Assembly (NCBI GenBank): GCA_010093745.1
Contig: MU005971.1
Span: forward strand, 62,001-126,000
Direction of reading: 5' to 3'
Source of the DNA: Piedraia hortae CBS 480.64
Lineage: Eukaryota
Length of the DNA stretch: 64,000 nt
Below the pieces are notes generated by a model, which was not told the origin of the DNA, made no database searches, and saw only the letters and a list, made by a program, of their open reading frames with translations. A program made the translations under genes and the position numbers. This document shows positions 35,853 to 59,799 of the stretch, piece after piece. Positions within the stretch are counted from its first letter, which is position 1. Every line of letters begins with the position of its first letter.

Positions 35853-36752
35853 CTAATAACTAGATGGCGCCAGGCCGAGTGACCCCCCGTCCACGCCAAC
35901 CACCTGTCCATTCATGTACGCCCCAGCTTTACTAGCCAGGAACAAGAAGACGCCCTGGAAATCTGACTCACATCCGGTCCTATTCGAGGGGGCCAAACGC
36001 TCCATCTTATATGCACCCTCAAAGGCCTCCCCTTTTGGAATCTTCTCCGCATTCTGCATCATTCCACCTGTCATTTCGCTGGGGAACAGTCCGGGAGCAA
36101 TGCAGTTACATCTGATCCTGAACTTTTTTTCGGCAAATGTCGTGCTGAGCATTTTGGTCAAATGAATCGCAGCGGCCTTGCTAGTCGAGTACGCGACACT
36201 CCCTAGTAGGCTTCTATAGTACCCGACCACGGAAGCCGTAATGATGATCTGGCTGTCCATTGCGACATTTTTAGCGGCATTTCCAGCAGCAAGCAGCTCG
36301 AGAAACGCTATGGCGGTGAAGTACGCCCCGGATACGTTGGTTCCCAAAACGTTCGTGAAGTTATCCACGTCATTTTCCCATAGAGCGGCTTGGAAGTCTG
36401 TGATGGATGGATTCTCGCCTTTGGCCGCCAAGGCATGTGAGTCTAGCTTACCAGCTACGCCGGCATTCGCGAAGAGCAGGTTTACATAGCCTTGCTCATT
36501 CTTCACACGTTCGGCCACCTTGCTTAGGCTTTCTTTGGAGGTTACGTCACCGACTATGGGATGGACATTTCCCTTGGGAAAGCCTGAAGCGGCGGACTTA
36601 AGTGCTTCTTCCCGCCGGCCGACTATGTAGACGGCCTTAGCCCCCGACTCAGAAAGCGCGCGGGCGGCAAAAAGGCCTAGTCCACTGCCACCGCCTGTGA
36701 TGACGGCCACGAGACCATTGGTGGCGAATAATTCCGTTGGATTGGAAGACAT
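35853..36752 (-). CDS. Short-chain dehydrogenase/reductase
   Basis: VITGGGSGLG, LFANAG, YSTSK, CIAPGLFPSEMT, MNGQVVGVDGG. Confidence 0.92.
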   Translation of the reverse strand: MSSNPTELFATNGLVAVITGGGSGLGLFAARALSESGAKAVYIVGRREEALKSAASGFPKGNVHPIVGDVTSKESLSKVAERVKNEQGYVNLLFANAGVAGKLDSHALAAKGENPSITDFQAALWENDVDNFTNVLGTNVSGAYFTAIAFLELLAAGNAAKNVAMDSQIIITASVVGYYRSLLGSVAYSTSKAAAIHLTKMLSTTFAEKKFRIRCNCIAPGLFPSEMTGGMMQNAEKIPKGEAFEGAYKMERLAPSNRTGCESDFQGVFLFLASKAGAYMNGQVVGVDGGSLGLAPSSY

Positions 36753-37689
36753 TGTTGCTGTGAAGGGGGAGGGGTAGCTTTCAAGATCTTCAAGGCCAAA
36801 CGGTTGAAGAACCCCCACTTCTGGCCGAACGCGAAATGCCAGTCCATGACATCACCAGACGGCATGCACCCCCTTATCTCCCTTGCGTCCTTTGCCTCCT
36901 CTTGGTATAAAAGTGGCTAGTACGTTCATAGATCATCAAGCTGGACTTACGATCTCAACGACTCTGAACCATGTACACGTGACTTCGGGAATCAGAGACT
37001 CGGTCCAGCAACGTCACCTCGGTAAACGTCATACTGGACGGACCTGCATGCCGAGATTTAAGGTCATTGAACAGGCTAGCGTACAAGACAGAAGGCATTT
37101 GGTCTGCCACAAAGAGCGATGGGAAAAAAACTGAAACTTCAGTGATTGTGGTATAATCTAGCCTAGCAAAAATATAGCAATCACTTGCGGTTCATAATTC
37201 AGGCTTCCATTCGACGTAATTGCCAGCTTGTGGTCCATACTTTGAGTTTTCGGTTCATGTAATGGCGAGACTGTCAAATTATTTGGTAGGCAATGGTGTT
37301 TGAGGGCGCATGTATATGTGGCTATGTGGTTGAGCTGATGTCATGTGGTGAGGTGAAGTTCCGCACTTCACCTCACGCTAACCCAGTTCTAGTCGCATTC
37401 ACCGAGACTACGTTTCCGAACACGCACAGAGCATAAAACGGCACCGTGTCTCGTCCCAGGGAAAACTTCCTCCTATAGAAGAAAAAACCCTGAGAAGCAT
37501 CGACCTCTATCTAAGCTCGCAGTTGCGACCTGGCTGTATACTATATGAGAGGGTTTACCGTCTCACAGAGACCTGGCCACGTAACCTTTCTCTTTCCATG
37601 CGAACGCCTATTCACCGCTGCATGTTTTGCTACGGCGCCGACTCGTGGAAGAATCGTCGCCGCATGCCAAACCTTCCAGAAGGTCGTGT

Positions 37690-38222
37690 CCAGGTACCAG
37701 GTCATGCCGCCATCAAAGGCAATGACAGGGCCGACGTCCTCGCCAAGATGGGAGCATCAGCCACAGTCGACCCGTCAGCCCCGGTCAGGCTGCCAACGTT
37801 AGCTCATATAAAGAGATCAGCATGAGCCTGGAGCGCTGCACCGGCGAGAGGCTGGTGGGCTGAGAATATCCCCCAGCACTACCAGGAGCTGGCCATCGGC
37901 TTTCCTTCCAAGCCGCCAAAGGAACTGCGCCTCCGACGAAATGCCCCTGGACAACTCGTCGCGTGCAAAACGAAGCACGGTGACTTTGCCGAGTACCATC
38001 AAAGGTTCAATCACCGCGATGCAGAGCTCCACTGCTCTTGCGGGAGCTTCAAGACCCCAGTACACTTTTATTTCCGCCCGAAAGGCTCAACTGCCAGCAA
38101 CGTGCTGTGCAAGGGCTCGCCAAGCACCGCATTGAACCAGGTCCTAGGCACAGCGGCTGGGACTAAACTGTTTGCCAAGTATACGGCACAGTCCAGGTTC
38201 TACGAGGACATCTGCCCCAGGC
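37690..38222 (+). mobile_element. 3' remnant of Tad1-like LINE ORF2 (RNase H C-terminus and Cys/His finger)
   Basis: One frame with one internal TGA: VPGHAAIKGNDRADVLAK (RNase H) ... HGDFAEYHQRFNH.DAELHCSCG..KTPVHF ... FYEDICPR. Confidence 0.85.
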
Positions 38223-38430
38223 AGTCGACCAGAAACCAAGATGGCCCAAGTGGCCGGGGAATTGACGCGGAAGAGGTGCGGTCGGAGGGCACCGAAGGAG
38301 AGGACGGGGAGTGAAAGAGTCGGCCCCGCATCGTCTTATGCCCCATTAGGGTCCGGGCATATGCTCATTAGGGGACCGCGACCGCGACGGAGTATCAAAA
38401 CACGCTATCTTCGCGGTCACTATCGTCACG

Positions 38431-38760
38431 ATGAGCACCGACATGGGCGTCCCGATCACGGACGACATCAACGACGTCTCCGCCGAGGCCAGGATCACGA
38501 ACTGGATTATGGACACAAACAGACACATGCGCACTAACCTGTCCAAGGCGACGCTCGTGAAGAGGCTGATGTTCAGGGACGACATGCTAGTCGTAGTCTG
38601 CCCCGGGTGCATGATCGGGAAGATAGCCACAGACATGGACACGACCATGTTCAAGTTCATGGACGCGGCTGCGAGCGTGGAGACGGTTATGAGCAACGCC
38701 GTTGTTGTCAGTGCGTTCTGCGGTCCAAGGACGGACACCTGCGCGCCTGTGAACCTGCAG
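38431..38760 (+). pseudogene. Island ORFan fragment (5' half of ORF 38431..39069)
   Basis: Protein-like, GC3-rich frame that is also open upstream of the ATG. Beyond ~38760 the + frame becomes His/Arg/Asp-rich, as expected of an antisense shadow. Confidence 0.45.
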
Positions 38761-39060
38761 ACGCCAAATGTCCATCGACATGATGAGGACCTCACCTGCG
38801 TGCACAACCATCGACGCAATTGTGTCCAAGATAGTCATGAGCATGCTAGCGTTCATGTCCACGATGCTATGCACATAGATTATGTTCGACATCATTTCGC
38901 TATGCGGCCCCATGCACAGATCCCCGATTATGGTGATCGGCGAGAAGGTGGTCCCGATAACCTCCGACGACTGGTGGACGAACATGAGGTTGACGCACTT
39001 GTCCGTGCAATCGGCGAGGAAGAGAGTCGCCGAACTCGTCCATGGCGAGGCTTGAGATCG
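38760..39060 (-). pseudogene. Island ORFan fragment on opposite strand
   Basis: Globular-looking stretch TLFLADCTDKCVNLMFVHQSSEVIG...VVHAGEVLIMSMDIW within ORF 38587..39351. Confidence 0.4.
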
Positions 39061-39127
39061 TGTCCGTGATCGGCATCGTGAGCGCACGGCGCGCTGTGCG
39101 GTTGCCACAGTCGTTGCGCGGCCCGTC

Positions 39128-40465
39128 ATGGTGTGGGCGAGGAGTCGGGGCATCTCCATGATCCCGCCCAGGTTGAGGGACACGGTGGCAACCTCAAGCG
39201 TAACCGGACGCATGCACGAGATGAAGGCCATGTGCATGGATGCGACTATGAAGTTGGCCAAGCAGCTGCAGACGTTCGTGCACGGGGACAGGTTCGTGTC
39301 CACGATCAGGGGCCTGATGATGTCTGCATACGCGGGGCCAATCAAAGTCATGCGCGTAGGCCTCTACCCATACGAGCAGGACATCCTGCACTCAATCGCC
39401 TCAGCCCTCGCGTACTCCCCCACGATGTGCGGCGGCTCCACGCCCTCCGTCCAGGTCCTCGCTCAGGCCATGGCTGCGATGGTTCACAGGGTCAAGATCA
39501 AAGCCACGAACAAGAAGGGCATGTCGGATGCGTGCATCGTCCCGACCGAGGCCGAGTTGGTAGCGACCTTCAAGATGTTGCTCAGGTGCTCGTACATGTG
39601 CACGGCTGTGGGCGTGGCCTTCGTCAACTGCGTCCCTGTGCCTGTGCCCACGATGGCGAGGAAGATCGCGTGGGCGTCCCTGTTTTCGGAGTGGCTCGGA
39701 GACATGATCGTGATCTACAACAAGTTCGGGTATAAGATGACGATTGTGAGCATGGGTGCACTCGCGTCCGACAGTGTAAAGAGGACGTTCAGCTCGTACA
39801 GGGGCACGAATGAGATGGGGAACCACACCGCCGCTGTGAATCCGGCCGCAATCTCCTACGTGAATGTGCCCAAGCACGTGGCTAGGTTCCCGATCACGCT
39901 GACGATCACGAATATCGAGGAGGAGATCTTCACGATGATGGACTACCACCCGACGTTGGACATTAGCACAAGCTACAAGTGGAATGTGTACCCCAGGGAG
40001 ACTCTGTCCATGTCCATAAATGAGAGCAGGGTCGGGCCTCTAGCCAGGTCCTTGGCTAACCACCGAGTCGAGGGTCTAGTGCCTTTCTTCATCAACATGG
40101 CGAAGGACCTCTTCAACACCGGGAAGATGCTGAACAACACGGCGTCATCCTCGTCCATCGCGCCGCCCGGGGCCCTGCAGCCGATGCCGGAGGAGGCTAT
40201 CCACGACGATCCGAGCGCAACCGGGGGCACGAGTCTGTTCATGAATAAGAACGAGAGTACAACCAGGACCCAGGACGCGCACGGGCCTCCGGCGAACTCC
40301 ATGAACCAGATCTACGTTGGGCGCAACATCATGCTTGCGCAGTTGACCGACGCCACAGGCAAGACCAAGACCCAGCAGACGATTATGGTCGAGAATATGA
40401 TCGGGAAGTTGGACGAGATTTTTCGAGCTGTACAGGACCAGGGACAAGAGGGAGGAGAGGCTTGA
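39128..40465 (+). CDS. Uracil-DNA glycosylase-fold protein with C-terminal extension (likely frameshifted near 40430)
   Basis: VMRVGLYPY (cf. VVILGQDPY), ASALAY, TPSVQVL (PPSL), VGVAFVN (QGVLLLN), IVSMG (FMLWG), NPAA (HPSP), in family-1 UDG order. Confidence 0.7.
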   Translation: MVWARSRGISMIPPRLRDTVATSSVTGRMHEMKAMCMDATMKLAKQLQTFVHGDRFVSTIRGLMMSAYAGPIKVMRVGLYPYEQDILHSIASALAYSPTMCGGSTPSVQVLAQAMAAMVHRVKIKATNKKGMSDACIVPTEAELVATFKMLLRCSYMCTAVGVAFVNCVPVPVPTMARKIAWASLFSEWLGDMIVIYNKFGYKMTIVSMGALASDSVKRTFSSYRGTNEMGNHTAAVNPAAISYVNVPKHVARFPITLTITNIEEEIFTMMDYHPTLDISTSYKWNVYPRETLSMSINESRVGPLARSLANHRVEGLVPFFINMAKDLFNTGKMLNNTASSSSIAPPGALQPMPEEAIHDDPSATGGTSLFMNKNESTTRTQDAHGPPANSMNQIYVGRNIMLAQLTDATGKTKTQQTIMVENMIGKLDEIFRAVQDQGQEGGEA

Positions 40466-40502
40466 GGAGAAGGTCACGTCCATCATCGCCGCTGCTTCGT
40501 AC

Positions 40503-40670
40503 AGGTTGTGGACGCCTGTAGGTTGTCAGAGGTATAGCCGAGGCTACAGGGGGCACGTGGTCAACCCGCGAAGTCGCGGCGAGGAAGCGGAGAACACGGC
40601 TCGCGTCACCCGAACAGCGAGACGTGTTAGATATAGTCTCGCAGTCGGCGACGGCCCCGTTATCGGCGAA
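40503..40670 (+). pseudogene. Frameshifted fragment of a second allele of the island RNA polymerase gene
   Basis: RLWTPVGCQRYSRGYR/GTWSTREVAARKRRTRLASPEQRDVLDIVSQSATAPLS aligns with RLWTPVGCQKYSRDYKGTWLTHEVMTTKLRVRIASPEEQDILNKILSTAAPLS at ~45664-45828. Confidence 0.85.
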
Positions 40671-41310
40671 GGTCGAGGTGGTCATCGGTACCATTACTGA
40701 GACCACCAGTGAATTTACTCGCAAGAAGAATCCTGGCAACAGGTACTGGCGCGCGCCGGTATCGTTCAGGTCGAACAATTTCGAGAGCCTTGTCCTTAAG
40801 CAAGCTAACGTCGCTGTCCCCTACAATAGGGGTAACAATTATGGTACGGACTACATATATGTCAATATGCCCAAGTTTGTAGGCATGCATCTCAAGAAAG
40901 CGGCAGAGCGGCAAGGTCTCGTCGTCCAGATCGATGACGACCGGTTGCACAGCACCGACACCGATTGGTGGAAAACTCTGAACAATTGCACCGACAATTG
41001 CGGTATCATCACCCAGAGCGGTGATTTTGAGCCTCGTGACTTGAACAACATATTCCGTGTCACCAAGAAGGGTGTTGTAGTCAACGTAGACTACTGCGTG
41101 TCGCTTCGTCTTACCAAGACGAATGGCGAAGATCTCAGCAGCACTGACGTGTTTCGTGTCGTTCTGGACTGCAGTCGCGTCGCTCTCAAGAAAGTGAAGG
41201 TGGACGTAGAGGGACCGCCCATGGCTGCCAAGATCCCCACCACCCTCGCAGTCAAGGATGACGTCGCCACAGACGATCTGCTCGTCCAGCTTGAAGCCAT
41301 GGGTATCTAA
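40624..41310 (+). CDS. Island ORFan, beta-rich with acidic tail (possibly ssDNA-binding); native start replaced by the polymerase fragment
   Basis: Open 228-codon frame with strong C/G-ending codon bias and no ATG near its 5' end; function is a guess. Confidence 0.6.
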   Translation: MLDIVSQSATAPLSAKVEVVIGTITETTSEFTRKKNPGNRYWRAPVSFRSNNFESLVLKQANVAVPYNRGNNYGTDYIYVNMPKFVGMHLKKAAERQGLVVQIDDDRLHSTDTDWWKTLNNCTDNCGIITQSGDFEPRDLNNIFRVTKKGVVVNVDYCVSLRLTKTNGEDLSSTDVFRVVLDCSRVALKKVKVDVEGPPMAAKIPTTLAVKDDVATDDLLVQLEAMGI

Positions 41311-42096
41311 GCTACTATAGAGATATCCACTTTTTTAAAAATATTTTCGGCAGCAGATGCTGCGAAATCAACTAGAGTACCATTGTCTGAAACGGAACTT
41401 GCTGGCGAAACAACTCTCATGGATATAGGCATATCGATCGGAATAGTCGCCAAATACCTCGCAGATGGGTACCAAATAGTATCAACTAACAACGATAAGG
41501 TAGCTACCAACGATCGGATTATATGTGTTAACGTCGCAACATGGGAGTCATGTCCCGCGAAAACCGAACTCTGTAATACACTGGCAAAGAGGTTAGATAA
41601 TAAGAAAGGCAATCGTTTTCAGCAACTGAGCGCAGTGGCAATATGTGCCCTTTGCACTCACGGTTATCTTATCAATCATATTTCTGCACCTGGGCTTACT
41701 GCTAAGGATATGGATACTGTGTGGGGGTTTATGGAAACAACGGCTGTGAGTTCCAGCGAAGCGTTATCCAAGTGGCTAAGCGAAACGATAGCAGGTAGAT
41801 CGCTCGACGGATACCGTGCTAGTGCAGTCATTGAGAACAATAGTGGACACTGTTGTAGTGATAATTACCGGCCACGTAACACATTACGTAAACCAGTAGG
41901 GGCAACTGAGTTGGTTGATATTAATGCTGCAGCATCGGAGTATGGGACAGGCGACAGCATTACCAGTCTCGCTATGGCTGACACAGACATGCTATGTTCG
42001 TTGCGTTTTAACAACGGTGAACCGCCGCCCAGAGTAACTGGTCCAACATGGTGTACGCTACAGCACGGCCAACGACTTAACGAACAGCGGCCATGA
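41311..42096 (+). CDS. Island ORFan, apparently 5'-truncated
   Basis: Frame is open directly from the TAA at 41308-41310; AT-richer codons; 3' end overlaps the convergent TBP-like ORF. Confidence 0.5.
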   Translation, partial: ATIEISTFLKIFSAADAAKSTRVPLSETELAGETTLMDIGISIGIVAKYLADGYQIVSTNNDKVATNDRIICVNVATWESCPAKTELCNTLAKRLDNKKGNRFQQLSAVAICALCTHGYLINHISAPGLTAKDMDTVWGFMETTAVSSSEALSKWLSETIAGRSLDGYRASAVIENNSGHCCSDNYRPRNTLRKPVGATELVDINAAASEYGTGDSITSLAMADTDMLCSLRFNNGEPPPRVTGPTWCTLQHGQRLNEQRP

Positions 42097-42894
42097 TCGT
42101 GATGATGCTATAGACAGTATTGCTTGTCTAAAACCCGCTCCAATTACATGCAAGGCATCGGGTTTACCGGTGCATTTGAAGGACCCGTCTGCATATAATA
42201 ACATACATGTGTTCTTGTTCGCTTCTTCGCCGTAGCACGTCGCTGTTGGTCGAGCTGTTATCTTGTAAGCAGATGTCTTGACATCATTTACGAATGCAAT
42301 ATTATCAGGTGCATACGACCTAAGCATCGCCGCAGACTCCCGTGTAATCGTAGCCACATGTGACCCGTCATCGTCCGTACACAAGAATATAAAGCGCGAC
42401 TTCGATATGTTGACAAACGACCACTGACAGGGTACCTCCATATTATCTATCACATACGGGGTTAATCTACCCGATACTTGCACCTTACAATTATGCTTCG
42501 TGACTGTGCAAGCTATAGCTCCCAGTTGTTCACACATAAGATGTGTAGTCATCTCTGCGTCCCGATGCTTAAGTACAGACAAACTTGCCGTTGAACTGCT
42601 CAACTCTGGTTGTACGAAACAACACCTGTATACCGCAGAGGTACCTACGACCCACAGCCCGACAGTATGACATGCCCTGACATTAGCGTTGACAATCGAC
42701 ATACCGTTTGTAAGCCCAGTGACCAGTGGTGTTAGCAGGTCAATCGAGGCTTGTGGTAACTGTACTCCGTAAGTACAGGTGTATACGTCTTCAGAGTTAT
42801 CGTTTGTAGTATGTTTGTATCTCAACGACAATGATAGAAGCTGGCTTTGTGTCCTGTTAGATCTGTTCTTCGATGATCTGAAAAACGATGCCAT
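42058..42894 (-). CDS. Putative divergent TATA-binding-protein-fold protein
   Basis: TCMLLYADGSFKCTG followed by a helix resembles TBP TALIFSSGKMVCTG; weaker first repeat (SIVNANV ... CKVQVSG). Confidence 0.5.
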   Translation of the reverse strand: MASFFRSSKNRSNRTQSQLLSLSLRYKHTTNDNSEDVYTCTYGVQLPQASIDLLTPLVTGLTNGMSIVNANVRACHTVGLWVVGTSAVYRCCFVQPELSSSTASLSVLKHRDAEMTTHLMCEQLGAIACTVTKHNCKVQVSGRLTPYVIDNMEVPCQWSFVNISKSRFIFLCTDDDGSHVATITRESAAMLRSYAPDNIAFVNDVKTSAYKITARPTATCYGEEANKNTCMLLYADGSFKCTGKPDALHVIGAGFRQAILSIASSRSWPLFVKSLAVL

Positions 42895-42895
42895 A

Positions 42896-43540
42896 TCACC
42901 ACCAGCGTAGGCTGCGCAACGATGTTGCTATGCGACACTGTCGCGATGACCGACAATACCATCGACAGAGCGGACGTGGAACAGATAAATGATGTGCTGC
43001 GTTTGTCATACTGGATCTCATTCTACTGACGCTATGCTGGGCGGGGTTACCCATCGCACAGATATGAACCTTTTTACCAGCAATGATCACAGACACTCTT
43101 ACTATATCAACGAGGAATTGTTCCGTTGCCACGCGCTCCCTGTCAGATAGCGGGTCAATAAACGGTGTATACGCACATATATTCATTACCAACACACCCT
43201 GACGGAGGTACTTCCAGCTTTCTTGGAACCAGTCGCGAGCGGTGTTATAATCCATGTCGGTGTGATTATGAATATCTCTGGCAATATAATGGACGGATGG
43301 TGTCACGTTAGTAAGCAAAGGATCATAAGACATGGCTGATGCGACGTACGGGAGGATACGATTACCATAGGGCCGCTCGCCCAATATGATATGCCTGATT
43401 GGCATCGATCGCGGTATTCCCAAAATATACCGGCATAGCGGCCCAGTTATATGATGAGTAGTGTTACGTGTAACGCCTATCTCATCGAGGTAAGCATAGC
43501 ATCTTTCGTAACATAGTTTAACTACTCGTTCGTCACACAT
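42896..43540 (-). CDS. Uracil-DNA glycosylase-like protein (C-terminus possibly replaced)
   Basis: HIILGERPY, ASAMSY, TPSVHYI, QGVLVMN, ICAMGNPAQ match the family-1 UDG motif order; HPSP motif not seen. Confidence 0.8.
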   Translation of the reverse strand: MCDERVVKLCYERCYAYLDEIGVTRNTTHHITGPLCRYILGIPRSMPIRHIILGERPYGNRILPYVASAMSYDPLLTNVTPSVHYIARDIHNHTDMDYNTARDWFQESWKYLRQGVLVMNICAYTPFIDPLSDRERVATEQFLVDIVRVSVIIAGKKVHICAMGNPAQHSVSRMRSSMTNAAHHLSVPRPLCRWYCRSSRQCRIATSLRSLRWW

Positions 43541-43581
43541 GGTGTTTTTAGCAGAGAGCTGCCTGTTTTAACATAGAGCTG

Positions 43582-44490
43582 CTAATCATTGAATAACCTC
43601 ACTACTAACTCTCCACATTCGACGTTAATGGTATCGTTTACATCATGACAGTTGACGCACACACGCCGATGTACAACATGCATAACAGAACAAAAGTAAC
43701 ATTTCTTATACTTGCTAATGGCATTCATGATTTCAGACACTAGCGTGTTAATAGACATGCTTACAGTATCAATATCAATCGATGTTCCTATTCTGGGAGG
43801 ACCGAAGTTAACTGCGACCAAGTTGTCCGTACGTGGGCGCTGGTACATCAATGGCGCTAATCGCGTTCCTTCAGAACCGATCAATGTGGGTACACCGTAT
43901 ATGACGCCGGTACCATTTACCCACATATTGGTACGTTTGTATTGTAATGAGACCGCCAATTCCATACACCTAATGGACCCTATCCACGTTAGCGTGCAAT
44001 CTTCGCTTATCAGTCCCTTTACAACGTCGATTAGCGTACCTCTGTTTACCGTGAATGGACCATTTATACTGCTCACACGTACTAAGTACTCCTTACCATC
44101 ATCGCCAATGGGTACTACTACACATGTAATTCCGGTCATTGAGTCTCTGATATTATCGATTGATTCTACTATATCAACAGCATAGTTTGAATATTCGATA
44201 AAAATTATGACATTGGTTATACCGCGGTACGACGACATCAATAACATCATGGTAGCAAGTACCGATAAATGTTCTTTTTTACAAGAATTAAACACCTTGG
44301 GCGACAAGGAGTACATGTCAGCAGTGTTCACATATGGTACCGTGATACCATCCACGAGAGCATCGATGGCAGCGAATTGATCATTGCGTATGTTGACATG
44401 AGTGCAATTGTCAACTGTGTCTGCAATCCGCTTCAATGATGTAGTGCAGTTAAATGCACATGCGCTGTTCCCGCTGCACCTACCGATCAT
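43582..44490 (-). CDS. Island ORFan with Cys clusters
   Basis: 302-aa intronless ORF; C-terminal CYFC..CVNC possible Zn site; start overlaps the upstream stop (ATGA). Confidence 0.7.
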   Translation of the reverse strand: MIGRCSGNSACAFNCTTSLKRIADTVDNCTHVNIRNDQFAAIDALVDGITVPYVNTADMYSLSPKVFNSCKKEHLSVLATMMLLMSSYRGITNVIIFIEYSNYAVDIVESIDNIRDSMTGITCVVVPIGDDGKEYLVRVSSINGPFTVNRGTLIDVVKGLISEDCTLTWIGSIRCMELAVSLQYKRTNMWVNGTGVIYGVPTLIGSEGTRLAPLMYQRPRTDNLVAVNFGPPRIGTSIDIDTVSMSINTLVSEIMNAISKYKKCYFCSVMHVVHRRVCVNCHDVNDTINVECGELVVRLFND

Positions 44491-45314
44491 TTGATGGAAT
44501 GAACGATATATTTCATGTGGTACCTAGACGTATGTTTCCCGCGCGCAGATTGTAAAGGTTCCAGCACTACCGATACAGTGAAGGTAGCAGTTGCCACTGC
44601 ATCACAGTTTAATCTTTCAGCGAACACCGCGGCTGTAGCGTCACGCCTCCAACCGCGCTCCATAATGTCGCAACATACCAGGTGTCGCGAGAGAGAGATT
44701 CTGACACTGCTATATGACCATGTGTCCTGATATGTAGGCATTACTCTGACTCCAATGCTATGGAGCGAGTCCATTAAAGCGTCTGTCACAATTATTGGTA
44801 CAAACAGTACCGCTGTATATGCCTCTGTATCAACAGTGGTGAAGAACGTGTGATCATACCTGTTTGTCTTAGGTCTAACAAGAACACAGTTAGGTACATC
44901 GAATACGGGAGACTTAACAGCAGGTTGGCATGTACATACAAGCATAACACCTCGAACGTACGGGTCAATGCATTCCGTTAGATAATCATAGTACTTACCT
45001 AGCACATCTAGGCTAAGCGGGATCAGCTCACTGGTTACATCTTCAGTGACGCGCAATCTCAATGGACGTTTGGCCTTCGCGATATCATAACCGTTGTCAG
45101 CCTGCAGTTGCATAAACTTCATATCAAACCATTCGTCTCCATTATTCGGTGGTGATTCGGTCCCTATTAGTGTCCAACCGCGGGTGTACAACCCACTGTT
45201 TATCATATCGTTAACATCATCATCGTATTCGGAAATCGTAGCTTGATCAGCGAAACCTACTGGAGTTGCAGCTGGCCTCGAGGTGCCCGGCGCACCGATG
45301 AGCATACGTGCCAT
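44487..45314 (-). CDS. Island ORFan
   Basis: 275-aa ATG-initiated intronless ORF, divergent from the polymerase gene. Confidence 0.7.
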   Translation of the reverse strand: MARMLIGAPGTSRPAATPVGFADQATISEYDDDVNDMINSGLYTRGWTLIGTESPPNNGDEWFDMKFMQLQADNGYDIAKAKRPLRLRVTEDVTSELIPLSLDVLGKYYDYLTECIDPYVRGVMLVCTCQPAVKSPVFDVPNCVLVRPKTNRYDHTFFTTVDTEAYTAVLFVPIIVTDALMDSLHSIGVRVMPTYQDTWSYSSVRISLSRHLVCCDIMERGWRRDATAAVFAERLNCDAVATATFTVSVVLEPLQSARGKHTSRYHMKYIVHSIK

Positions 45315-45355
45315 GTGGATACAGCAACGCCGTTGCCTACCCTACGTGAATCAGT

Positions 45356-48300
45356 ATGTCGCTATTTAATCTCCGTCAACATGAAGCCTACGCCAATGGC
45401 GTGACATTGAGCAATCATATGACACTACGCAACGCTTGCATAGATTACCGCGACGCGGGAGGTACATCTTGGGTTGACAATGCTGCCCCTGAAATGAGCG
45501 CTGCCGCCTCAGATGATCAAGTCCCCTGTATGAATAAATTCACGAATATAGTTGGACATGCAAGCGACAGCGAGATCATTTGCTTTGGTATACAGGAGTG
45601 TACTAGTGCAATTGGCGTGCTAACTGAAGTTATAGGATCAATGCAGCGCGCCGTCGAGCTGGGCAGATTGTGGACGCCTGTAGGTTGCCAGAAGTACAGT
45701 CGCGACTATAAAGGAACCTGGTTAACACACGAGGTAATGACGACAAAGTTGAGGGTACGGATCGCATCGCCGGAAGAGCAGGACATATTGAACAAGATCT
45801 TGTCAACGGCAGCACCATTGTCAGTAAGCACCGTACACGCTGCAATGGAGGCAAATCATCATACTAACATTTGCGAGTATGGTAATATATTTATGTTTCC
45901 ACACGGTGCAGCACCATCCGCCGGGTTAATAGGATCTTTACATGACAATGAATGCGTAGATATGTGTCCCAACGACAATAAGGATGTTCCAAACAGTGCT
46001 GCCAGATCATTCCTAAGGGAATACAGGGGATTTATATGTGCAGGACACACATCGCATTCGACAGAAGCAGGAAGAGTGCGCCGAGTCACATGCGACGTGC
46101 GCGTCAGATTATTGTCTCGTCGTACCATCGACGACCTACGTGGTATCGAACTCGTGTGGCGCAACATCTATCGTGGCACCGATACGGATTGGACTGTGTT
46201 TTGTATGGGATATCATTCCCGCATAACGCGCGCTGAGATGATATGCTTAGAACGGTTCCGAAACACCATATCAGCCAGACGTCCTTGTAGCTTCAGCGTG
46301 CATACGTACCCTGATCTGAAGTTAGTGATAGTTTCAGTAAGCTCAGGGACGCTAATGAAAAAATGTAGCGTAGGTGGATGGGCGGACAACATTGAAGTTC
46401 ACGTGTCTAGACCTATTGACGATTCACCCCGGCCAGAAATCCATAGCACTGGATATGACCAGCTGAGGGCAAACTTCTCGGCGTTTTTTAATCTTGTACC
46501 ATTCATATCAAGTGACCGAGCACCTAGACCGCTCATCTCGTCTGTACAGACTCCTCAGGCAGTCTGTATTCCATGGTGCCCCGGTACAGCGTCGGTGTCA
46601 CCGTGTTACTCGTTTAACCCGATAGTCACCACACCACTGTACACCAATGTTCTCGCCGATATAAATGATGGCAACGCGAATGTGAGTAGTTACCTTCCCG
46701 GTGAAAATGTAGTAGTGCTGTATCTAAATATGCCGGGCAATTATGAGGATGCCATGATAGTCTCACGCAGATACATTGACAACGGTGGGTTTAGCACTGT
46801 CTCCATATGTTCCTACCTTGTGCAACAAAGCGAATATGTGCCGCCTGTAGGTAGCCGTGTGTGTTCAGTGCTATGTACATGGTGGAAATCACCATGTGAA
46901 CCTGGATGCCTCCATACAACGAGGTATATCGAATCGACTAAGACGTACTGCGTTGGGCACGCACCAACCGGCGTGATCGTCAGCGTCACTAAACAACCCA
47001 CGGGGGACATATCGGTTAGGGTGAAAAGTCACCAGCAATTGCAGCAAGGCGACAAGCTTTCCACTGGTCATGGACAGAAAGGCGTTGCTGTCCTGTGGAA
47101 TCATGAGGACATGCCTGTGGCTCATAGTGCGAAGCATGGTACAATAATACCAGATGTTGTGGTTGCGATGTCGTCACTTGTGACTCGACAAACCAATGGA
47201 CAACTATACGAAGCTGCGTGTGCGTTAACACATATTTCAATGGGATCAAGGCTACCGGTGGCGGTTGACGCAGATGCTGTGTTTGATGTTAACGACGAAT
47301 TCACTGTCACTGATGCTACTACAGGTGAGCCGTACATGACGGCTGTAGTCGGCGATGATGGTGAGATATACATGCAAGAGACGCTGGCCACGTTGGGCAT
47401 TGTGCGTATGTTCAACCAGACACAGATGACCCGCGAGCGGCATCATGTGTCCCACATCTCACACGGCGCTGCGCCATCCGCTGGATTGATAGGCTCCCTG
47501 CACGACAACGAGTGCATAGACATGTGTCCGGGTGACAACAAGGACGTCCCAGACCTCGCGGCTAGGTCCTTTCTGAAGGGTTACAGGGGATTCATATGCG
47601 CGGGTCACACATCGCATTCCACAGAGGCCGGAAGGGTTCGTAGAGTAACGTGCGACGTACGTGTCAGGTTGCTGTCGCAACACACGATCGACGACCTGCT
47701 GGACGTCACAGTTGCGCTGCGCAATATTTCCCGTGGCACTGATACAGACTGGACAGTGTTCTGCATGGGGTACCACGCGCGCATAACACGCGCTGAGATA
47801 ACGTGCCTGGAACGGCTCCGTGACAGTGCGTCAATCAGACGTCCGTGCACCTTCAGTGTGCACATATATCCCGACTCCAAGCTGGTCGTTGTATCGGTGA
47901 GCTCAGGGACGTTGTTAAAGAAGTGCAGCGACGGCAGGTGGGCAGACGACGTTGAAGTCCACGTGTCCGAGCCGGTTGGTGGTTCGTCCCGGCCTAGAGT
48001 GTCGGGCTCGGGGCGCGATCAGCTGAGGGCGAATTTTTCAGCTTTCTTCAGCCTCGTGCCTTTCGTATCGAGTGGCAGGGCCCCTAGGCCACTCATATCC
48101 TCAGTGCAGACACCTCAAGCTGTTTGCATCCCGTGGTGCCCCGGTACCGCGTCAGTGTCGCCGTGTTACTCGTTCGACCCGGTGGTCACGACGCAGCTGT
48201 ACAGCGAAGTGCTCGCTGACATACGTAACGATAGGGCGAATGCGAGCAGCTACCTTCCAGATGAAAACGTAGTGACGTTGTACCTAAATCTGCCAGGCAA

Positions 48301-48445
48301 CTACGACGACGCTATGATAGTTTCGCGCAGGTACGTTGACAATGGTGGGTTTAGCACAGTTTCCGTGTGCTCGTACCTGGTGCAGCAAAATGAGTACGTA
48401 CCACGAGGAGCTGACGGAGGTCAACCCATCCATAGACGAAGATGA
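45356..48445 (+). CDS. Highly divergent DNA-directed RNA polymerase second-largest subunit (Rpb2/beta-like); chimeric, native C-terminus missing
   Basis: GFICAGHTSHSTEAGRVRRV ([20 protein letters not shown]), LVPFISSDRAPRPLISSVQTPQAV, GENVVV..GNYEDAMIVS..IDNGGF, QGDKLSTGHGQKGV..EDMP, IPDVVV..TRQTNGQLYE. Confidence 0.9.
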   Translation: MSLFNLRQHEAYANGVTLSNHMTLRNACIDYRDAGGTSWVDNAAPEMSAAASDDQVPCMNKFTNIVGHASDSEIICFGIQECTSAIGVLTEVIGSMQRAVELGRLWTPVGCQKYSRDYKGTWLTHEVMTTKLRVRIASPEEQDILNKILSTAAPLSVSTVHAAMEANHHTNICEYGNIFMFPHGAAPSAGLIGSLHDNECVDMCPNDNKDVPNSAARSFLREYRGFICAGHTSHSTEAGRVRRVTCDVRVRLLSRRTIDDLRGIELVWRNIYRGTDTDWTVFCMGYHSRITRAEMICLERFRNTISARRPCSFSVHTYPDLKLVIVSVSSGTLMKKCSVGGWADNIEVHVSRPIDDSPRPEIHSTGYDQLRANFSAFFNLVPFISSDRAPRPLISSVQTPQAVCIPWCPGTASVSPCYSFNPIVTTPLYTNVLADINDGNANVSSYLPGENVVVLYLNMPGNYEDAMIVSRRYIDNGGFSTVSICSYLVQQSEYVPPVGSRVCSVLCTWWKSPCEPGCLHTTRYIESTKTYCVGHAPTGVIVSVTKQPTGDISVRVKSHQQLQQGDKLSTGHGQKGVAVLWNHEDMPVAHSAKHGTIIPDVVVAMSSLVTRQTNGQLYEAACALTHISMGSRLPVAVDADAVFDVNDEFTVTDATTGEPYMTAVVGDDGEIYMQETLATLGIVRMFNQTQMTRERHHVSHISHGAAPSAGLIGSLHDNECIDMCPGDNKDVPDLAARSFLKGYRGFICAGHTSHSTEAGRVRRVTCDVRVRLLSQHTIDDLLDVTVALRNISRGTDTDWTVFCMGYHARITRAEITCLERLRDSASIRRPCTFSVHIYPDSKLVVVSVSSGTLLKKCSDGRWADDVEVHVSEPVGGSSRPRVSGSGRDQLRANFSAFFSLVPFVSSGRAPRPLISSVQTPQAVCIPWCPGTASVSPCYSFDPVVTTQLYSEVLADIRNDRANASSYLPDENVVTLYLNLPGNYDDAMIVSRRYVDNGGFSTVSVCSYLVQQNEYVPRGADGGQPIHRRR
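47460..48403 (+). repeat. Diverged, indel-free copy of 45900-46843 (offset 1560 nt)
   Basis: Same offset at both ends; in the first 60 nt there are 14 substitutions but only one amino-acid change. Confidence 0.95.
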
Positions 48446-48758
48446 AAAGCAAACAAACAAACAATGCTTTGCTACGGATGATCTTCAGGCTGATTCACCG
48501 CCGCCGGAATTTGCTACCGCCCGTTCCTCGAAGCTTGGCCTCCATTGAGAGAGAAGGTACTGAGGTTGGATGGAGAGCAGTTCCAAGGCGATATGGAGGA
48601 TTGCACACCCGCTGATTTACCAGATTGCAAGAAGCGCACGGTTCAATGGGATGCTCTCCCTCTTCACCAGGAAACACACTTTTCTTCTTCCCCACCAGAA
48701 TTCATGTGCTAAAACCTCATTTCATACCCATCATTACTGATACAATTACTTCTACCGC

Positions 48759-51700
48759 CTACTGTCCCTTTCCCCTCTTTGCAATGTAATACGTGAGCAG
48801 TCCCAATCTCCCTTCGTCCGTCCCCTTAAACGCATCCCAAAACTCATTCTTCTCCGCAAAGAGCTCAAACAATTCACTCGCAAGCTCCACATCTGCCTTT
48901 CGAACTTCAGCATCAGCGTGACAAAGATTCGCAGCTGCAGTGCTTGTTAGGCGCGTGCGTACGCTCGTCTCGAGCTCTACAGAGGAAGAGCGGGCTTTCG
49001 TCGTCTCGACTAGACGGCGGAGGGTGTAAAGCGCCATTGCAACTGCGCCGTCGCCCTGATCCTGGCCGAGAAAATCCAGGGTTGCGTCGATGCAGACCTC
49101 TGGCTGCGACGTCCTTACAATTTCGTCTGCCGTCTTCTCGACGTCGGTGGCAAAGTAGCCGTTGGATATGGTGGTGCTGTTCTGGCACGCAAAAACTGTG
49201 ACAAGCGCCTTGGCCTGCCATGCTGTGGCGTGCTTGCGTTGCCGCGTGAGCAGCGTGCGCATGAGGATCATGGCTTGAGTCTTGAGTGAGGTGGCCTTGG
49301 GCGGTGTTGGGATGATTGTGTCAAATGTCTGGAGGTAGTCTAGCAGGACGGTCATGAGCTCGTCGTACCTTTTTCCGCCGTCCCAAATGTCCTGTTTGCT
49401 CTTGGCGAGATCCTGCACACGTCGGAAGCCGTGCACGTCTAGAGACTTGTTGCGGATGCGCTCGATGCCGGAGCTGAGGAGCTTCTTGCTACGGTGCAGG
49501 TCTGCGCGTTCTTGTGGAGATGGCTCAACGCCGTTGAGAGGCTGCGGACTGGTACCTGCGCTCTCGCTGGAGTCGCCGTTGTTAATGGGACTGGCTACCC
49601 TCGCGTTCTCGTTTACTTTGATTTCTCCGAGCACCTTACGGTCACCGTTCATCGGTGCTGTACCTGCACCTGTGACAAAAGGATCTTCGTAGATGGGGAT
49701 TTCTTCGGCCTGTGTTGTAACAGCGGATTGAGGCTCGCTGGCTACTTCAGGCATACCGTGCCGTTGCATCGGCGAGTTGCGGTCGAGCTTGTCCCTCGCC
49801 TGGTCGAACATGGCCTTCAACGGAGTCCGAGTAGCAAGAGGAGATTGTGTACGTGGCTGGTGGCTGGTCATGGTGGGCATTACCATGGTGAAGCCATCAT
49901 CGTCTGATGGTGCATGGAGGCTGCTGTCCGCGGACATGGCCTGTTGCAGACCGGGACGCTTGATGCCGAGCCCGTTCTTGCTGCTTGGGATAACCATTGT
50001 AAGATCATCCTCGTTAATCATCGATGCGTCGTCGCTGCGTGGCGCATTGCTGCCCTTGCTAGTCGGCCTGGAGGTCTGAACGTGATCGGTGACTGACCGG
50101 CTAAGGCCTGGCATAGGGCTGCGTCTGCGAGGACTGCCTCGAGGGCTCGCCGTGTGTCGGGGACTGGCCCCCTGTCGGACACCGGTTGATCCCTTGGTGG
50201 CACTCAAACCGGAGGCGGAGGTCTTGGATGGCCTCGGTGAGTCCCCTCCCGGGCTGCCGTTTGCCGGAGTGGCGGGCCTCAGCATGCGTCTGGAGGCATA
50301 AGGGTCAGCAGTCTGCGGACGTGCAATCTCCGGTCTTCTAGGCCGTCTTGCCGGGCCAGACATGAGTGCACTACGCTTGCTGGTGGACGAAGCACGGTTG
50401 TCAGGAGCACCGGCCGAGACATTTGACGTGACTCTATCAGGATGGAGGTGTGAAGGGGCACGAGGAGCGTGGTTGACAGTGGAATAGGACCGAGGCTTTG
50501 CAGGCGACAGCTGGGCCATGGCCGAGTTTGGCCTATCAGGCACTCGTCCATGCGCCTTTGCCTTCCTCTGCTCAGCAATCATGTCCCGCATCGCCTGTCT
50601 GCTGGTAGCAGACCGTAAGCCGGTGGCTCCCGTGGTCGGTAGAGACTTGTGGAGGCCAGCATTGGGATTTCCGGGGTGTTTCTGTAGTGCCGTTTTGGCT
50701 GGGCTGTCGAGGGAGTTTATGAGCTTCTCGGCACGTTCTGGCCAGCTCTTTGCGAACACCCAGTAGGTTGCCCTCATGCCTTCTTTAACAGCCGGCTTTG
50801 CGTCTTCCAGGCCCTTTTTGATCGTCTTTTCGGCCAGTTCTAAACCGCCAGAGATCTCAAAGTGGTGCTGATAGCCAGCCTGGCGGTTCAAGATGGTCTT
50901 GAGCCACTCGGGCACGCATTGGCGGATTTGGACGTTTTTGTCTTGGGAAGCATACCAGATATGCTGCATCATGTTACGGTTGTAGGAGCAATGCTGAAAA
51001 AGGGCGTCACACGTCGTTCGGCCGTTCTGGGCAGCAATCGGTTTCGTGTTGGAGCTCATCTTGATGAAGTTTTGTAGCAAAATTTCGACTGTGGGGTCCA
51101 GCGCCGGGCCCAGCGTCCGTGCCAGTTCCTGCACAAGCTGCGTGCCATTGGTAGACATGGTTGTCCGCAACGAGTTGGCTACCTTTAATATGCCCTCCAG
51201 GAGGCTCTTGATGCCGGCCATGAAGGCTGGATGGTACTGGCTGGGTGCGTTTCCCTTCAATAGCCGCCGCAACATAACGACTGACTTATCCCGAGGAATC
51301 CAGTTCTCTTCATCCTCTTTGCCCTCGAAGAATGGCAGCATATCGCGGAAGATGTCGGTCAGGTCTCGCTCCGAGTAGACGGTGACAGGATCCATCTGGA
51401 CAGGTTCAGGAGTCGGTGGATGGGCCGCTTCGCTGTTTAGGCTGTGAGAAAGTTGATTGCCAGGGGGGAGCAGATTGCCGCCCTCGGCTGCCTCTTGCTC
51501 GCCATCGCCCCTCGTCCTCGGCCTGGCGGGAGGTGCGGCTGTTTCGCTTCCAATCTGAGCGAGTATCTGCGACTGGATAGAGTGGCGAACCGAATGCGCC
51601 TTCAACTGGCGCTTGAGATCCAGCTTTGCGCGATCTGGCGCGTCAGAGAAAAGTTCGATGAGGGCTGTCTTAGCCGTCTCCCGCACGTTGCCCTCGTGGT

Positions 51701-52226
51701 CCTCGAGGCGCGCCACAATAGCCGATACATACGCCTTGAACGGCATCGCACGATCTTTGTGCATGCGCGCAACCCACAGGATGCCGGCTTCCTTTGCGCG
51801 CGCGTGAGAACCGCCGATGGCATCATCGCGGATCAACTGCTCGACGTCGGCAGTCAAGAATGGGTATAAGTCGCTTAGCGCGTGCGATGCGCCGGCCCTC
51901 ATCGGCTCCTTGAGGTCGGCCAACTTCTCGAGCAGTACAGGTAGCAGGCGCGGCGCCAGGTGGACGATCGCGCGGCCGTGTGGGTCCTGTATGCGCAGCC
52001 GCTTCACCAGCGGCGAAAGTGTTGAACAGGCCAACAATGCCAGCGTAGACGACGAGTGCTGTGCAACAGCCAATTTGAGGCATTCAAAGATGGTCGACTG
52101 AACACTCTCCGGCACTTCGCCGTGGCGGATCTCGGCCTTCAATGCGTTCATGGCGTCCATTTTGTGCTGCGACTGCGCTGCCGGCCGCTTCAGCATTGCC
52201 AGCAGTTCCGCTGCTTGAGCCTCCAT
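48759..52226 (-). CDS. STU1: CLASP-family microtubule-associated protein Stu1
   Basis: TOG/HEAT repeats, FEGKEDEENWIPRDKSV, SLRTTMSTNG, RPRRPEIARPQTADPY, C-terminal LLTYYI. Confidence 0.93.
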   Translation of the reverse strand: MEAQAAELLAMLKRPAAQSQHKMDAMNALKAEIRHGEVPESVQSTIFECLKLAVAQHSSSTLALLACSTLSPLVKRLRIQDPHGRAIVHLAPRLLPVLLEKLADLKEPMRAGASHALSDLYPFLTADVEQLIRDDAIGGSHARAKEAGILWVARMHKDRAMPFKAYVSAIVARLEDHEGNVRETAKTALIELFSDAPDRAKLDLKRQLKAHSVRHSIQSQILAQIGSETAAPPARPRTRGDGEQEAAEGGNLLPPGNQLSHSLNSEAAHPPTPEPVQMDPVTVYSERDLTDIFRDMLPFFEGKEDEENWIPRDKSVVMLRRLLKGNAPSQYHPAFMAGIKSLLEGILKVANSLRTTMSTNGTQLVQELARTLGPALDPTVEILLQNFIKMSSNTKPIAAQNGRTTCDALFQHCSYNRNMMQHIWYASQDKNVQIRQCVPEWLKTILNRQAGYQHHFEISGGLELAEKTIKKGLEDAKPAVKEGMRATYWVFAKSWPERAEKLINSLDSPAKTALQKHPGNPNAGLHKSLPTTGATGLRSATSRQAMRDMIAEQRKAKAHGRVPDRPNSAMAQLSPAKPRSYSTVNHAPRAPSHLHPDRVTSNVSAGAPDNRASSTSKRSALMSGPARRPRRPEIARPQTADPYASRRMLRPATPANGSPGGDSPRPSKTSASGLSATKGSTGVRQGASPRHTASPRGSPRRRSPMPGLSRSVTDHVQTSRPTSKGSNAPRSDDASMINEDDLTMVIPSSKNGLGIKRPGLQQAMSADSSLHAPSDDDGFTMVMPTMTSHQPRTQSPLATRTPLKAMFDQARDKLDRNSPMQRHGMPEVASEPQSAVTTQAEEIPIYEDPFVTGAGTAPMNGDRKVLGEIKVNENARVASPINNGDSSESAGTSPQPLNGVEPSPQERADLHRSKKLLSSGIERIRNKSLDVHGFRRVQDLAKSKQDIWDGGKRYDELMTVLLDYLQTFDTIIPTPPKATSLKTQAMILMRTLLTRQRKHATAWQAKALVTVFACQNSTTISNGYFATDVEKTADEIVRTSQPEVCIDATLDFLGQDQGDGAVAMALYTLRRLVETTKARSSSVELETSVRTRLTSTAAANLCHADAEVRKADVELASELFELFAEKNEFWDAFKGTDEGRLGLLTYYIAKRGKGQ

Positions 52227-58597: not shown

Positions 58598-59799
58598 GTG
58601 CTTACTGCGTCGATTTGCCCTGTCTTGCTTCAGATATGGAACGCTCTAGAAACACCTCTTTCTGAAGTCTTCGGTGAGAGTGACGAGGTGCGACAAGCAC
58701 AGACACAGTTGCGTATCACTCGCCTCCGTCACCGAACTACGGTATTAGACCTCATTGCCCAGTTGGACTCATTCACGGACCAGCTCAACTGGCCAGCTCA
58801 GGCACGGCACGCCTTCTTCTACCAAGTCGTACGACCGGCGGTTCGCCTGGCCTTGATCCATACTGACACTACGACCTATCAAGCGTTAAAGGAGAACGCT
58901 AAATGGGTCGAAGCCCTTCAAGAACTGGCCAAAGGAAACGCCGATGCACCCTCGCACAAACCTTCCCGACGCGGGTGTAAGCGCAAAGCGGGCCCGGGCA
59001 TGTGCCTAAAGGCTGCTGTGCAAAAGCCACTGCCGAAGGCAAACCCATCACCCGCCACTGCGATGCGGTTGATGATCCTGCTGGGGTCGAGCGCGTACCA
59101 CTTACCATCGTCGGCAACACCTACCAGGCCCTCGTTGACACTGGCGCGGTGGTGAATTGCATTCGAGCCAGCATCGCGCCACCCGATAAGCTTCCCTCTC
59201 GAGTCAATCTGGTGGGACCCACGGGACTGCCTATAGCCACGCATGCCGACCAAGTTCTGATTGAGATCAATATGCGGCCTGTTCTCTGTTACGTTGTGGA
59301 GGGCCTTTCCGAGCACCTCATCCTAGGCCTACCATATATCAAGGATGAAGGATTGCCTAGAATATGCCATATCCATACGACAGGCCCGAGCAAGAACGGG
59401 CGCAACCCACGGCCTCTCCTCTCTGCGGAGCCCGACGCCTTGAAGTCAACCTTGAATGAGGGAATCTCGAAAGGGTTGATCAAGCCATCCAATGCAGGGA
59501 AGGCAGCGAACATTCTGTTCGTGCCTAAGAAAGACAATTCATTGCGCATGTGCATCGATTACAGGAACCTTAACTCTAACACCGTCACGAATGATTACGC
59601 AATTCCCAATCTGGATGACCTCCTCCAACGGGCAGCAGCGTCCCGCCTGTTCTCGCTCATAGATATCCGTAGCGCTTTTCACCGCATCCCTCCGTCGCCA
59701 ATAACGCGTTCAAAGACAGTTTTCAAGTGTGTTGAGGGAACGTTTGAGTACAACGTGATGCCCTTTGGCATCAAAAATGGCCCCGCTACGTTCCAATGA
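58598..59799 (+). mobile_element. Truncated Ty3/Gypsy LTR-retrotransposon remnant (gag, protease, N-terminal RT)
   Basis: Gag-like VFGESDE..LNWP..FFYQ; protease ALVDTGA; RT LFVPKKDNSLRMCIDYRNLN..IDIRSAFHRI..VMPFGIKNGPATFQ*. No YxDD, RNase H, integrase or LTR seen. Confidence 0.92.

Follow-up and report, generated by a model that had tools for sequence, protein, structure and literature searches.

What is an extremely divergent Rpb2-like gene doing in the chromosome of the fungus Piedraia hortae CBS 480.64? The question is raised by an open reading frame (ORF) that begins at position 45356 of a stretch of 64,000 nucleotides (nt) of contig MU005971.1 (assembly GCA_010093745.1, positions 62,001 to 126,000 of the forward strand), which we call the window and from whose first letter all positions are counted. 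A first-pass annotation, made from the letters of the window, had described this ORF as encoding a minimised two-barrel RNA polymerase subunit of about 700 amino acids (aa), far from cellular Pol I-III. We conclude that the ORF is likely a truncated, chimeric and endogenised fragment of the gene for a compact Rpb2/beta-like subunit, derived from a small DNA element. The locus itself is most likely a recent viral or plasmid relic from which no active polymerase is made.

The Rpb2-like reading frame and its breakpoint

The motifs on which the first-pass annotation relied are all present, and in the order that it gave: SSDRAPR (aa 384-390; SSDRAPRP, aa 384-391), the acidic pair of NYED (aa 462-465, with E464 and D465 held in PGNYEDAMIV), both lysines of GDKxxxxHGQKG, and AMSSLVTRQT (aa 603-612). 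HMMER aligns these motifs to PDHNQSPR, EDS, GDKFASRHGQKG and NPHAIPSRMT of Rpb2, with S. pombe Rpb2 as the best match (E 8.2e-8), and R391 in the PR motif is invariant in alignment A1. The profile search for RNA_pol_Rpb2 domains that the annotation had proposed returned Pfam RNA_pol_Rpb2_6 (E 2.3e-21; 76.8 bits, where the cut-off is 23.4), together with a match to Rpb2_3 (E 0.0017) that falls under the Pfam cut-off. Judged from the sequence, the motifs and the Rpb2_6 match are far beyond chance.

An AlphaFold (AF2) model of aa 1-704, built from an alignment of 33 sequences, has a predicted local distance difference test score (pLDDT) of 86.8 and a predicted template modelling score (pTM) of 0.87. 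Searched with Foldseek, this model matches archaeal RpoB best (E 7e-27), then Pol I, II and III, and vaccinia at E 8e-24. When superposed using VIA-align (Z 24.3, root-mean-square deviation 4.8, 563 residues aligned), residues 15-696 of the model span yeast Rpb2 37-1102, which is the whole chain as far as the GEME/anchor-clamp part. Structure prediction and superposition, which the annotation had proposed as a check, thus recover the Rpb2/RpoB fold, at an identity to solved Rpb2/RpoB chains of about 15%, and its description of the protein as a compact and extremely divergent Rpb2 homologue stands. A search of the ESM Atlas with P0002 gave generic Rpb2 clusters only (score 0.93).

The length and the end of the ORF had to be revised. 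It does not stop at 47460 after about 700 aa but reaches 48445 and 1029 aa, and 47460-47468 is where a duplicate starts. We refer to aa 1-704 as copy 1, which holds a reduced protrusion/lobe, the fork and the hybrid-binding double-psi barrel and breaks off immediately short of the GEME/anchor-clamp region. In alignments of 12 and 33 sequences, the intact relatives described below (~800 aa) run past '...MTRERHHxSH' into GRxRGGGVxxGEME and a C-terminal Cys cluster, a stretch that aligns, through the family profile, with the corresponding GEME and clamp sequence in RpoB of P. furiosus (E 2.3e-27). The window copy departs from the family alignment exactly at residue 704 (nt ~47466-47468), without the last ~100 aa of its relatives and hence without an Rpb2_7-type GEME anchor and Zn-binding clamp. 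A tblastn search that used the C-terminal 125 aa of seven relatives as queries (E <= 1) found no GxRxGEME/clamp sequence in the 64 kb and matched only residues 1-25 or 1-26 of these queries, ending at 47467-47470. The reported absence of GEME and clamp is thereby confirmed for the window, whereas the minimised design read from it is not, since the intact relatives keep both. Because they do, and because the copy breaks at residue 704, we attribute the loss to truncation by rearrangement: to go by these alignments, GEME and clamp were lost at a rearrangement breakpoint, not through minimised design.

Beyond the breakpoint the ORF continues into a second, diverged partial copy of the same gene. 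The direct repeat is visible in the DNA, where 45900-46756 recurs at 47460-48316 with a spacing of 1560 nt and 73-75% nucleotide identity, and in the protein, where aa 705-1018 and aa 185-498 share 250 of 318 residues. The 269 nucleotide differences among 954 aligned sites are distributed 49/39/181 over codon positions 1/2/3, and the Nei-Gojobori proportions of synonymous (pS) and nonsynonymous (pN) differences are 0.777, which is saturated, and 0.120. Set against the four closest relatives, each copy has 7 private amino-acid changes. Of the 42 columns with a conservation of 90% or more, copy 1 differs at none and copy 2 at two (G449D and E464D), the second of which falls in the ED pair. A tree of 71 rows, obtained by a quick maximum-likelihood search only, joins the two copies as sisters with a Shimodaira-Hasegawa-like approximate likelihood ratio (SH-aLRT) support of 100, and the GC content at third codon positions (GC3) is 0.465 in copy 1 and about 0.64-0.653 in copy 2. 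Given the third-position excess, a pS far above pN and the private changes on both sides, we conclude that the copies have a long history of divergence as functional genes and that illegitimate recombination brought them together later. We also considered repeat-induced point mutation (RIP) as the source of the divergence and rejected it, as the differences lie at third positions, the frames have remained open and no RIP-like pattern shows in the dinucleotide indices.

Related elements and their transcription genes

We searched a collection of 5.8 billion proteins with aa 1-704 and found 64 relatives among 8000 scored candidates. These are 602-866 aa long, nearly all of them 758-866 and three shorter, at 29-64% identity. 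A metagenome scan gave 12 related loci (labelled L001 and so on), which are gene-dense and intron-free and lie on contigs without host genes; the 817-aa protein of L001 is 64.5% identical to copy 1 over aa 10-717. The family has the same whole-chain fold as cellular Rpb2/RpoB (P. furiosus 8rbo_B and yeast Rpb2; Z ~24 over ~560 residues) and the same motif order (fork, PR motif, ED, GDKx4HGQKG), to which the intact relatives add GEME and the clamp Cys. However, its members have ~800 aa where the cellular proteins have 1100-1250, and its N-terminal protrusion/lobe takes up ~210 profile positions compared to ~440 residues.

A partner subunit with an NADFDGD-like motif, which the first-pass annotation proposed to look for, exists in the related elements but is lacking in the 64-kb window. 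It is an Rpb1-like protein of 610-655 aa with invariant IRPPSL and HxDxDGDE (HGDYDGDE, HADFDGDE), which matches Pfam Rpb1_2 at E 7e-13 and, in a profile search of the PDB, S. pombe Rpb1 at E 7.5e-12. In L004, L009 and L010 the Rpb2-like and Rpb1-like proteins are encoded by separate ORFs. The related loci also encode PolB (PF00136; E 3e-35 in L004 and 1e-28 in L009), and one distant relative matches PF03175 weakly as well. An element protein of 712-746 aa has a TFIIS-type zinc ribbon and is read as capping-like, with KPDGER as its putative guanylyltransferase motif and DVGxGxGQS as its putative methyltransferase motif. A 447-aa protein is read as carrying a pol-beta-type nucleotidyltransferase signature, and further element genes encode a DUF5906/D5-like helicase, RNase H, NADAR and an APH-like kinase. 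No double jelly-roll capsid protein or A32-type packaging ATPase was matched by Pfam in 67 ORFs of partial contigs, 29 of which were rescanned at E <= 1 with no consistent lead. Within single protein clusters the contig sizes are uniform (27620, 27634, 27636 and 27963 nt in one 90% cluster; 27173-27751, 28479 and 29320 nt in another), and we read this as a sign that they may be complete free genomes of ~27-28 kb.

The upstream regions of element ORFs have a palindrome in common, GCAAC-N3-GTTGC. Its core, CAAC-N3/4-GTTG, is found 11 times in L001 (0.5 expected), 9 times in L010 (0.26), 5 times in L004 (0.44) and 4 times in L002 (0.6), with no match in four short loci and L011. Most core matches are intergenic and lie 19-50 nt ahead of start codons, and such matches stand before the Rpb2-like genes of four loci (L001, L003, L004 and L009) as well as the Rpb1-like gene of L010. 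In the window, five of the six core matches, and the only two perfect 13-mers (Table 1), fall inside the island of element-derived DNA described in the next section; the 11-mer core of the 13-mer at 42916-42928 recurs at the syntenic L001 position 5368. We regard the palindrome as a candidate promoter of the elements. L001 also has tandem paralogous ORFs of ~147 aa at 14562-15005 and 15181-15618, each with a palindrome upstream.

Relatives are found in named gene models of Hypoxylon sp. FL1284 and Aspergillus hancockii. A profile search across 1.84 billion representatives yielded 160 matches at E <= 1e-30, and those looked up include chytrid models that merge PolB and an Rpb2-like part, integrated Closterium copies and a decayed Fusarium copy. 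In four such models from chytrids and Closterium (P0133, P0141, P0143 and P0126; 961-1678 aa), the PolB domain is joined to the Rpb2-like part; either these proteins are truly fused, or eukaryotic gene callers have run neighbouring element ORFs together. To judge from the P0144 cluster, whose 39 members (a distant Rpb2-like protein of 901 aa) lie on contigs of 18.9-19.2 kb, there may be a second size class among the related elements. We considered the Fusarium protein P0197 (987 aa) as a beta-beta' fusion but rejected this, because its C-terminal half is low-complexity read-through unlike the Rpb1-like profile. A scan of IMG/VR gave 33 pattern matches and 0 confirmed relatives. No published description of the element family was found in a literature search that left subscription journals and part of PubMed Central outside.

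We propose that in the intact elements, on contigs of about 24-32 kb, the ~800-aa Rpb2-like and the 610-655-aa Rpb1-like proteins would form a compact two-barrel core. This core would transcribe the element's own genes from GCAAC-N3-GTTGC sites 19-50 nt ahead of each ORF. A capping-enzyme-like protein and a PolB/D5-like replication module are encoded beside the polymerase genes. Whether these elements make up an undescribed lineage is, in our estimation, evenly balanced. Such a lineage would consist of self-transcribing replicons of ~19-33 kb (viruses or capsid-less plasmids) in Dikarya, with distant relatives in chytrids and a charophyte alga, and would be characterised by a two-subunit RNA polymerase, a capping-type enzyme of its own, PolB, a promoter-like palindrome and the ability to insert into nuclear DNA.

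The island in the fungal chromosome and its transcripts

By its gene content the window is fungal chromosome, with fungal Vps52, Rrn7, DASH Ask1, LIM-RhoGAP, KH, SDR, CLASP and Sec7/BIG genes recognised by Pfam. The island is bordered on its left by the SDR gene at 35853-36818 and on its right by the CLASP gene at 48759-52226, and the ORFs in between have no Pfam matches. Using tblastn with the ORFs of six related loci, we found 39.2-48.4 kb to be colinear with L001 2688-~11500. The gene order of L001 is kept over 40.65-47.47 kb, where six neighbouring ORFs match at 38-68% identity, and the seven island ORFs stand in L001 order except for a single deletion of ~2 kb. Truncation affects three island genes, and the 338-aa L001 gene adjacent to the gene for the 525-606-aa core protein is deleted. 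PolB, Rpb1-like, capping-like, helicase, RNase H, NADAR, nucleotidyltransferase-like and kinase-like genes gave no tblastn match in the window at E <= 1, and PHROGs gave chance-level matches only for nine island ORFs. For the 275-aa ORF that diverges from the Rpb2-like ORF, there was no Pfam match, and an AF2 model from 6 sequences was unusable (pLDDT 36).

Table 1. Features of the window discussed in the text, with their positions and the basis of each assignment
Feature	Position	Strand	Basis or remark
Chimeric Rpb2-like ORF	45356..48445	+	1029 codons: aa 1-704, second partial copy, 11 unrelated codons, stop
Rpb2-like copy 1 (aa 1-704)	45356..47467	+	Pfam, AF2, Foldseek, VIA
Codons of E464-D465 (NYED acidic pair)	46745..46750	+	Both columns invariant in alignment A1
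Codons of GDKLSTGHGQKG (aa 565-576), with both lysines	47048..47083	+	ORF translation, HMMER, family alignment
Further partial copy, diverged and in frame (aa 705-1018, corresponding to aa 185-498)	47468..48445	+	Direct repeat, breakpoint alignment
48-nt GT..AG intron	45587..45634	+	Missing from one X2 contig; in frame, 16 codons removed
58-nt GT..AG intron	45820..45877	+	Same X2 contig; frame shift, stop after 155 residues
65-nt GT..AG intron in the 275-aa ORF	45196..45260	-	X2 contig (CT..AC); frame shift, stop after 35 residues
Palindrome GCAACGCCGTTGC	45324..45336		In the 41-nt divergent intergenic region; ends 20 nt before the Rpb2-like ATG
Second perfect palindrome GCAACGATGTTGC	42916..42928		Upstream of the ORF at 42058-42894 (-)
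Island of element-derived DNA	38325..48441		tblastn colinearity; left limit uncertain
275-aa ORF, divergent to the Rpb2-like ORF	44487..45314	-	Pairing conserved beside the Rpb2-like gene in L001, L002 and L004
302-aa conserved element ORF with C-terminal Cys cluster	43582..44490	-	tblastn against related loci
Truncated gene with only aa 1-227 of the 525-606-aa core protein (557 aa in L001)	42896..43540	-	tblastn
278-aa ORF of a 284-aa element family	42058..42894	-	tblastn
237-aa ORF of a 216-aa element family	41383..42096	+	tblastn
228-aa ORF, aligned to aa 80-291 of a 291-aa L001 protein	40624..41310	+	tblastn
445-aa ORF, N-terminus distantly related to the 525-606-aa core family	39128..40465	+	tblastn

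Two sequencing runs cover the window: X1, a DNA run that is possibly the source data, and X2, from another study with the same organism label. No run listed as RNA was found to cover it. A single X1 contig spans 39637-52500, and X2 contigs match 46509-48084 and 48116-49286 with 0 mismatches. Since X2 contigs match both, the duplication junction and the boundary between island and host are not artefacts of one data set. One further X1 contig joins 38324 to 48442 and skips 10117 bases, although its shorter side has only 23 letters and is weak. Coinciding with the limits of the island, this joint is only a hint of an empty site.

Three GT..AG introns, two in the Rpb2-like ORF and one in the 275-aa ORF, are missing from one X2 contig (Table 1). 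All three carry fungal-type branch sites. Because their joints are seen in X2 and not in X1, we infer that X2 holds spliced RNA. Cover by X2 is absent at 43976-44509 and next to absent from 42374. Given a mobile-element fragment with no partner gene in the window, and splicing that breaks the frame, a working polymerase is unlikely to be made from this locus, which is probably inactive.

GC3 within the island is bimodal, at 0.42-0.48 for the block 41383-47467 compared to 0.83, 0.66 and about 0.64 for the ORFs at 39128-40465 and 40624-41310 and for copy 2; host genes have 0.55-0.71. As GC3 is uniform in free elements, this suggests that the island is made of pieces of two related elements. The ORF with the highest value, the 445-aa ORF at 39128-40465, is covered by X2 and resembles the core-protein N-terminal domain only at its own N-terminus (around 'GLYPYE...ASALAYSP'); it may be an element gene of greater age or from a different source. 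In all, the chromosome contains about 10 kb of element DNA, in which the Rpb2-like gene is cut at residue 704 and deprived of the GEME/anchor-clamp part, by which the largest subunit is gripped. What follows the cut, without change of frame, is a segment of another, related copy (aa 185-498).

Some further observations concern the surroundings of the island. The segment 37400-38300 is a multi-copy repeat on which many X1 and X2 contigs pile up at 90-99% identity, and within it a 100-aa ORF (37523-37825) contains 'GNDRADVLAK', which is RNase H-like; the repeat is probably what is left of a retroelement at the edge of the island. Inside the island, a second X1 contig is ~91% identical to 39275-39606 (30 differences and 1 gap in 332 nt), and the genome therefore contains at least one further related insertion. 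Elsewhere in the window, 27900-29100 holds a 1.1-kb AT-rich tract of 24% GC, open in six frames amid 50-58% GC, and 58598-59799 (+) is a fragment that carries aspartyl protease and reverse transcriptase domains (RVT_1, E 4e-16), the remnant of a long terminal repeat retrotransposon.

Alternative explanations and significance

Several points weigh against the reading of the locus as an inactive relic of a free element. No stop interrupts the 1029-codon frame, even at the junction, all seven island ORFs are open too, and copy 2 is changed at only 2 of the 42 highly conserved columns. Open frames fit a recent insertion, but to go by the sequences host selection is possible too. The region is transcribed, and since the contigs show the assembled isoform alone, the island may also give unspliced mRNA. 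The search for a partner gene covers the 64-kb window, and such a gene or an intact element may lie elsewhere in the fungal genome. As for the relatives, their free, episomal state is read from contig sizes and gene density alone; with no capsid or packaging gene recognised, they may be either viruses or plasmids; and the link to fungi consists of three NCBI gene models (Hypoxylon, Aspergillus and the decayed Fusarium copy) and the window.

Another way to view these points is that the island has been exapted, the host expressing truncated element genes or RNAs against incoming elements of the same family, for instance as a dominant-negative subunit or a source of small RNAs. We consider this unlikely. 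The open ORFs, the transcripts and the near absence of change in copy 2 at conserved columns are all compatible with exaptation, and the flanking element-derived ORFs have a GC3 (0.64-0.83) that is host-like or higher while that of the core is 0.42-0.48. However, in both ORFs with joints the assembled transcripts are spliced out of frame, and the signature of purifying selection between the copies is accounted for by evolution before insertion. The possible X1 empty-site joint, weak as it is, would point to a young, polymorphic insertion.

We regard it as very unlikely that the ORF came from an element of a known kind, that is, from an insertion of Nucleocytoviricota or a zymocin-type cytoplasmic linear plasmid (virus-like element, VLE). 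The VLE RNA polymerase (pGKL2 K2ORF6p/K2ORF7p) would be the closest working analogue of the one proposed here, being likewise encoded by a small fungal DNA element. According to the accessible text of Sykora et al. (2018, PMC6211774), its beta-like part has ~690 aa, with shortened spacers and nearly all conserved regions kept; the polymerase acts together with a capping enzyme that the element encodes, and every ORF has a promoter element 20-40 nt ahead of it. The same text, however, sets VLEs apart by a beta-beta' fusion in one protein, described as unique and essential. The elements fail this hallmark, since their beta- and beta'-like parts are separate genes. Moreover, the DNA polymerase of VLEs is primed by a terminal protein, whereas the element PolB matches PF00136 (E 3e-35); the SF3/D5-like helicase differs from that of VLEs, the dominant upstream motif is unlike their upstream conserved sequence (UCS) ATNTGA, and the elements are about twice as large.

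The nucleocytovirus Rpb2 (vaccinia Rpo132, 8p0j_B; African swine fever virus, 8q3b_B) has the same fold as the element protein (Foldseek E 8e-24; phmmer E ~1e-5), and PolB, the D5-like helicase, the RNA polymerase subunits, the TFIIS ribbon and the capping-like enzyme of the elements all resemble the nucleocytovirus core set. Against this, nucleocytovirus Rpb2 has 1150-1250 aa and is encoded in genomes of >100 kb with capsid genes, while the relatives lie on uniform contigs of 19-33 kb, not of giant-virus size, with no capsid or packaging ATPase recognised. Baculovirus LEF-8/LEF-9 are compact viral two-barrel subunits with little that is recognisable beyond GxKx4HGxKG and DxDGD, from viruses with insect hosts and genomes of >80 kb. 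The Rpb2-like ORF of the window did not match LEF-8 (PF04941) in Pfam at E <= 1. Endogenous elements of DNA viruses in fungi, in so far as the accessible parts of two papers describe them (PMC10640383, PMC13533422), are alike in being viral DNA fixed in a fungal chromosome, but they are of giant-virus origin and from early-diverging fungi, whereas the island derives from a ~27-kb element whose named models are ascomycete. Beyond giant-virus traces, the accessible part of PMC10640383 knows of no dsDNA viruses in fungi.

It is barely credible that faulty assembly produced the chimeric ORF or placed it in the chromosome, for although an assembler could be misled by diverged repeats with a spacing of 1560 nt, the X1 contig and the mismatch-free X2 contigs described above speak against it, with the limit that X1 may be the source data and X2 bears the same organism label.

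The locus is thus a genomic fossil, yet one that ties a fungal chromosome to small elements with a minimal multisubunit-type RNA polymerase of their own, and the interest lies in this apparently undescribed element family, not in the relic. If the reading is true, the family would fill a gap in the literature, in which free DNA elements of such a sort are unknown in filamentous ascomycetes. Its polymerase would be a natural, much reduced two-barrel enzyme (~800 + 630 aa) with a simple candidate promoter, suited to biochemistry, and would add a new branch to the debate on the kinship of cytoplasmic plasmids and the large DNA viruses of eukaryotes. Its genes, which fungal genome projects annotate as hypothetical nuclear genes, would also serve there as a marker for elements of this kind.

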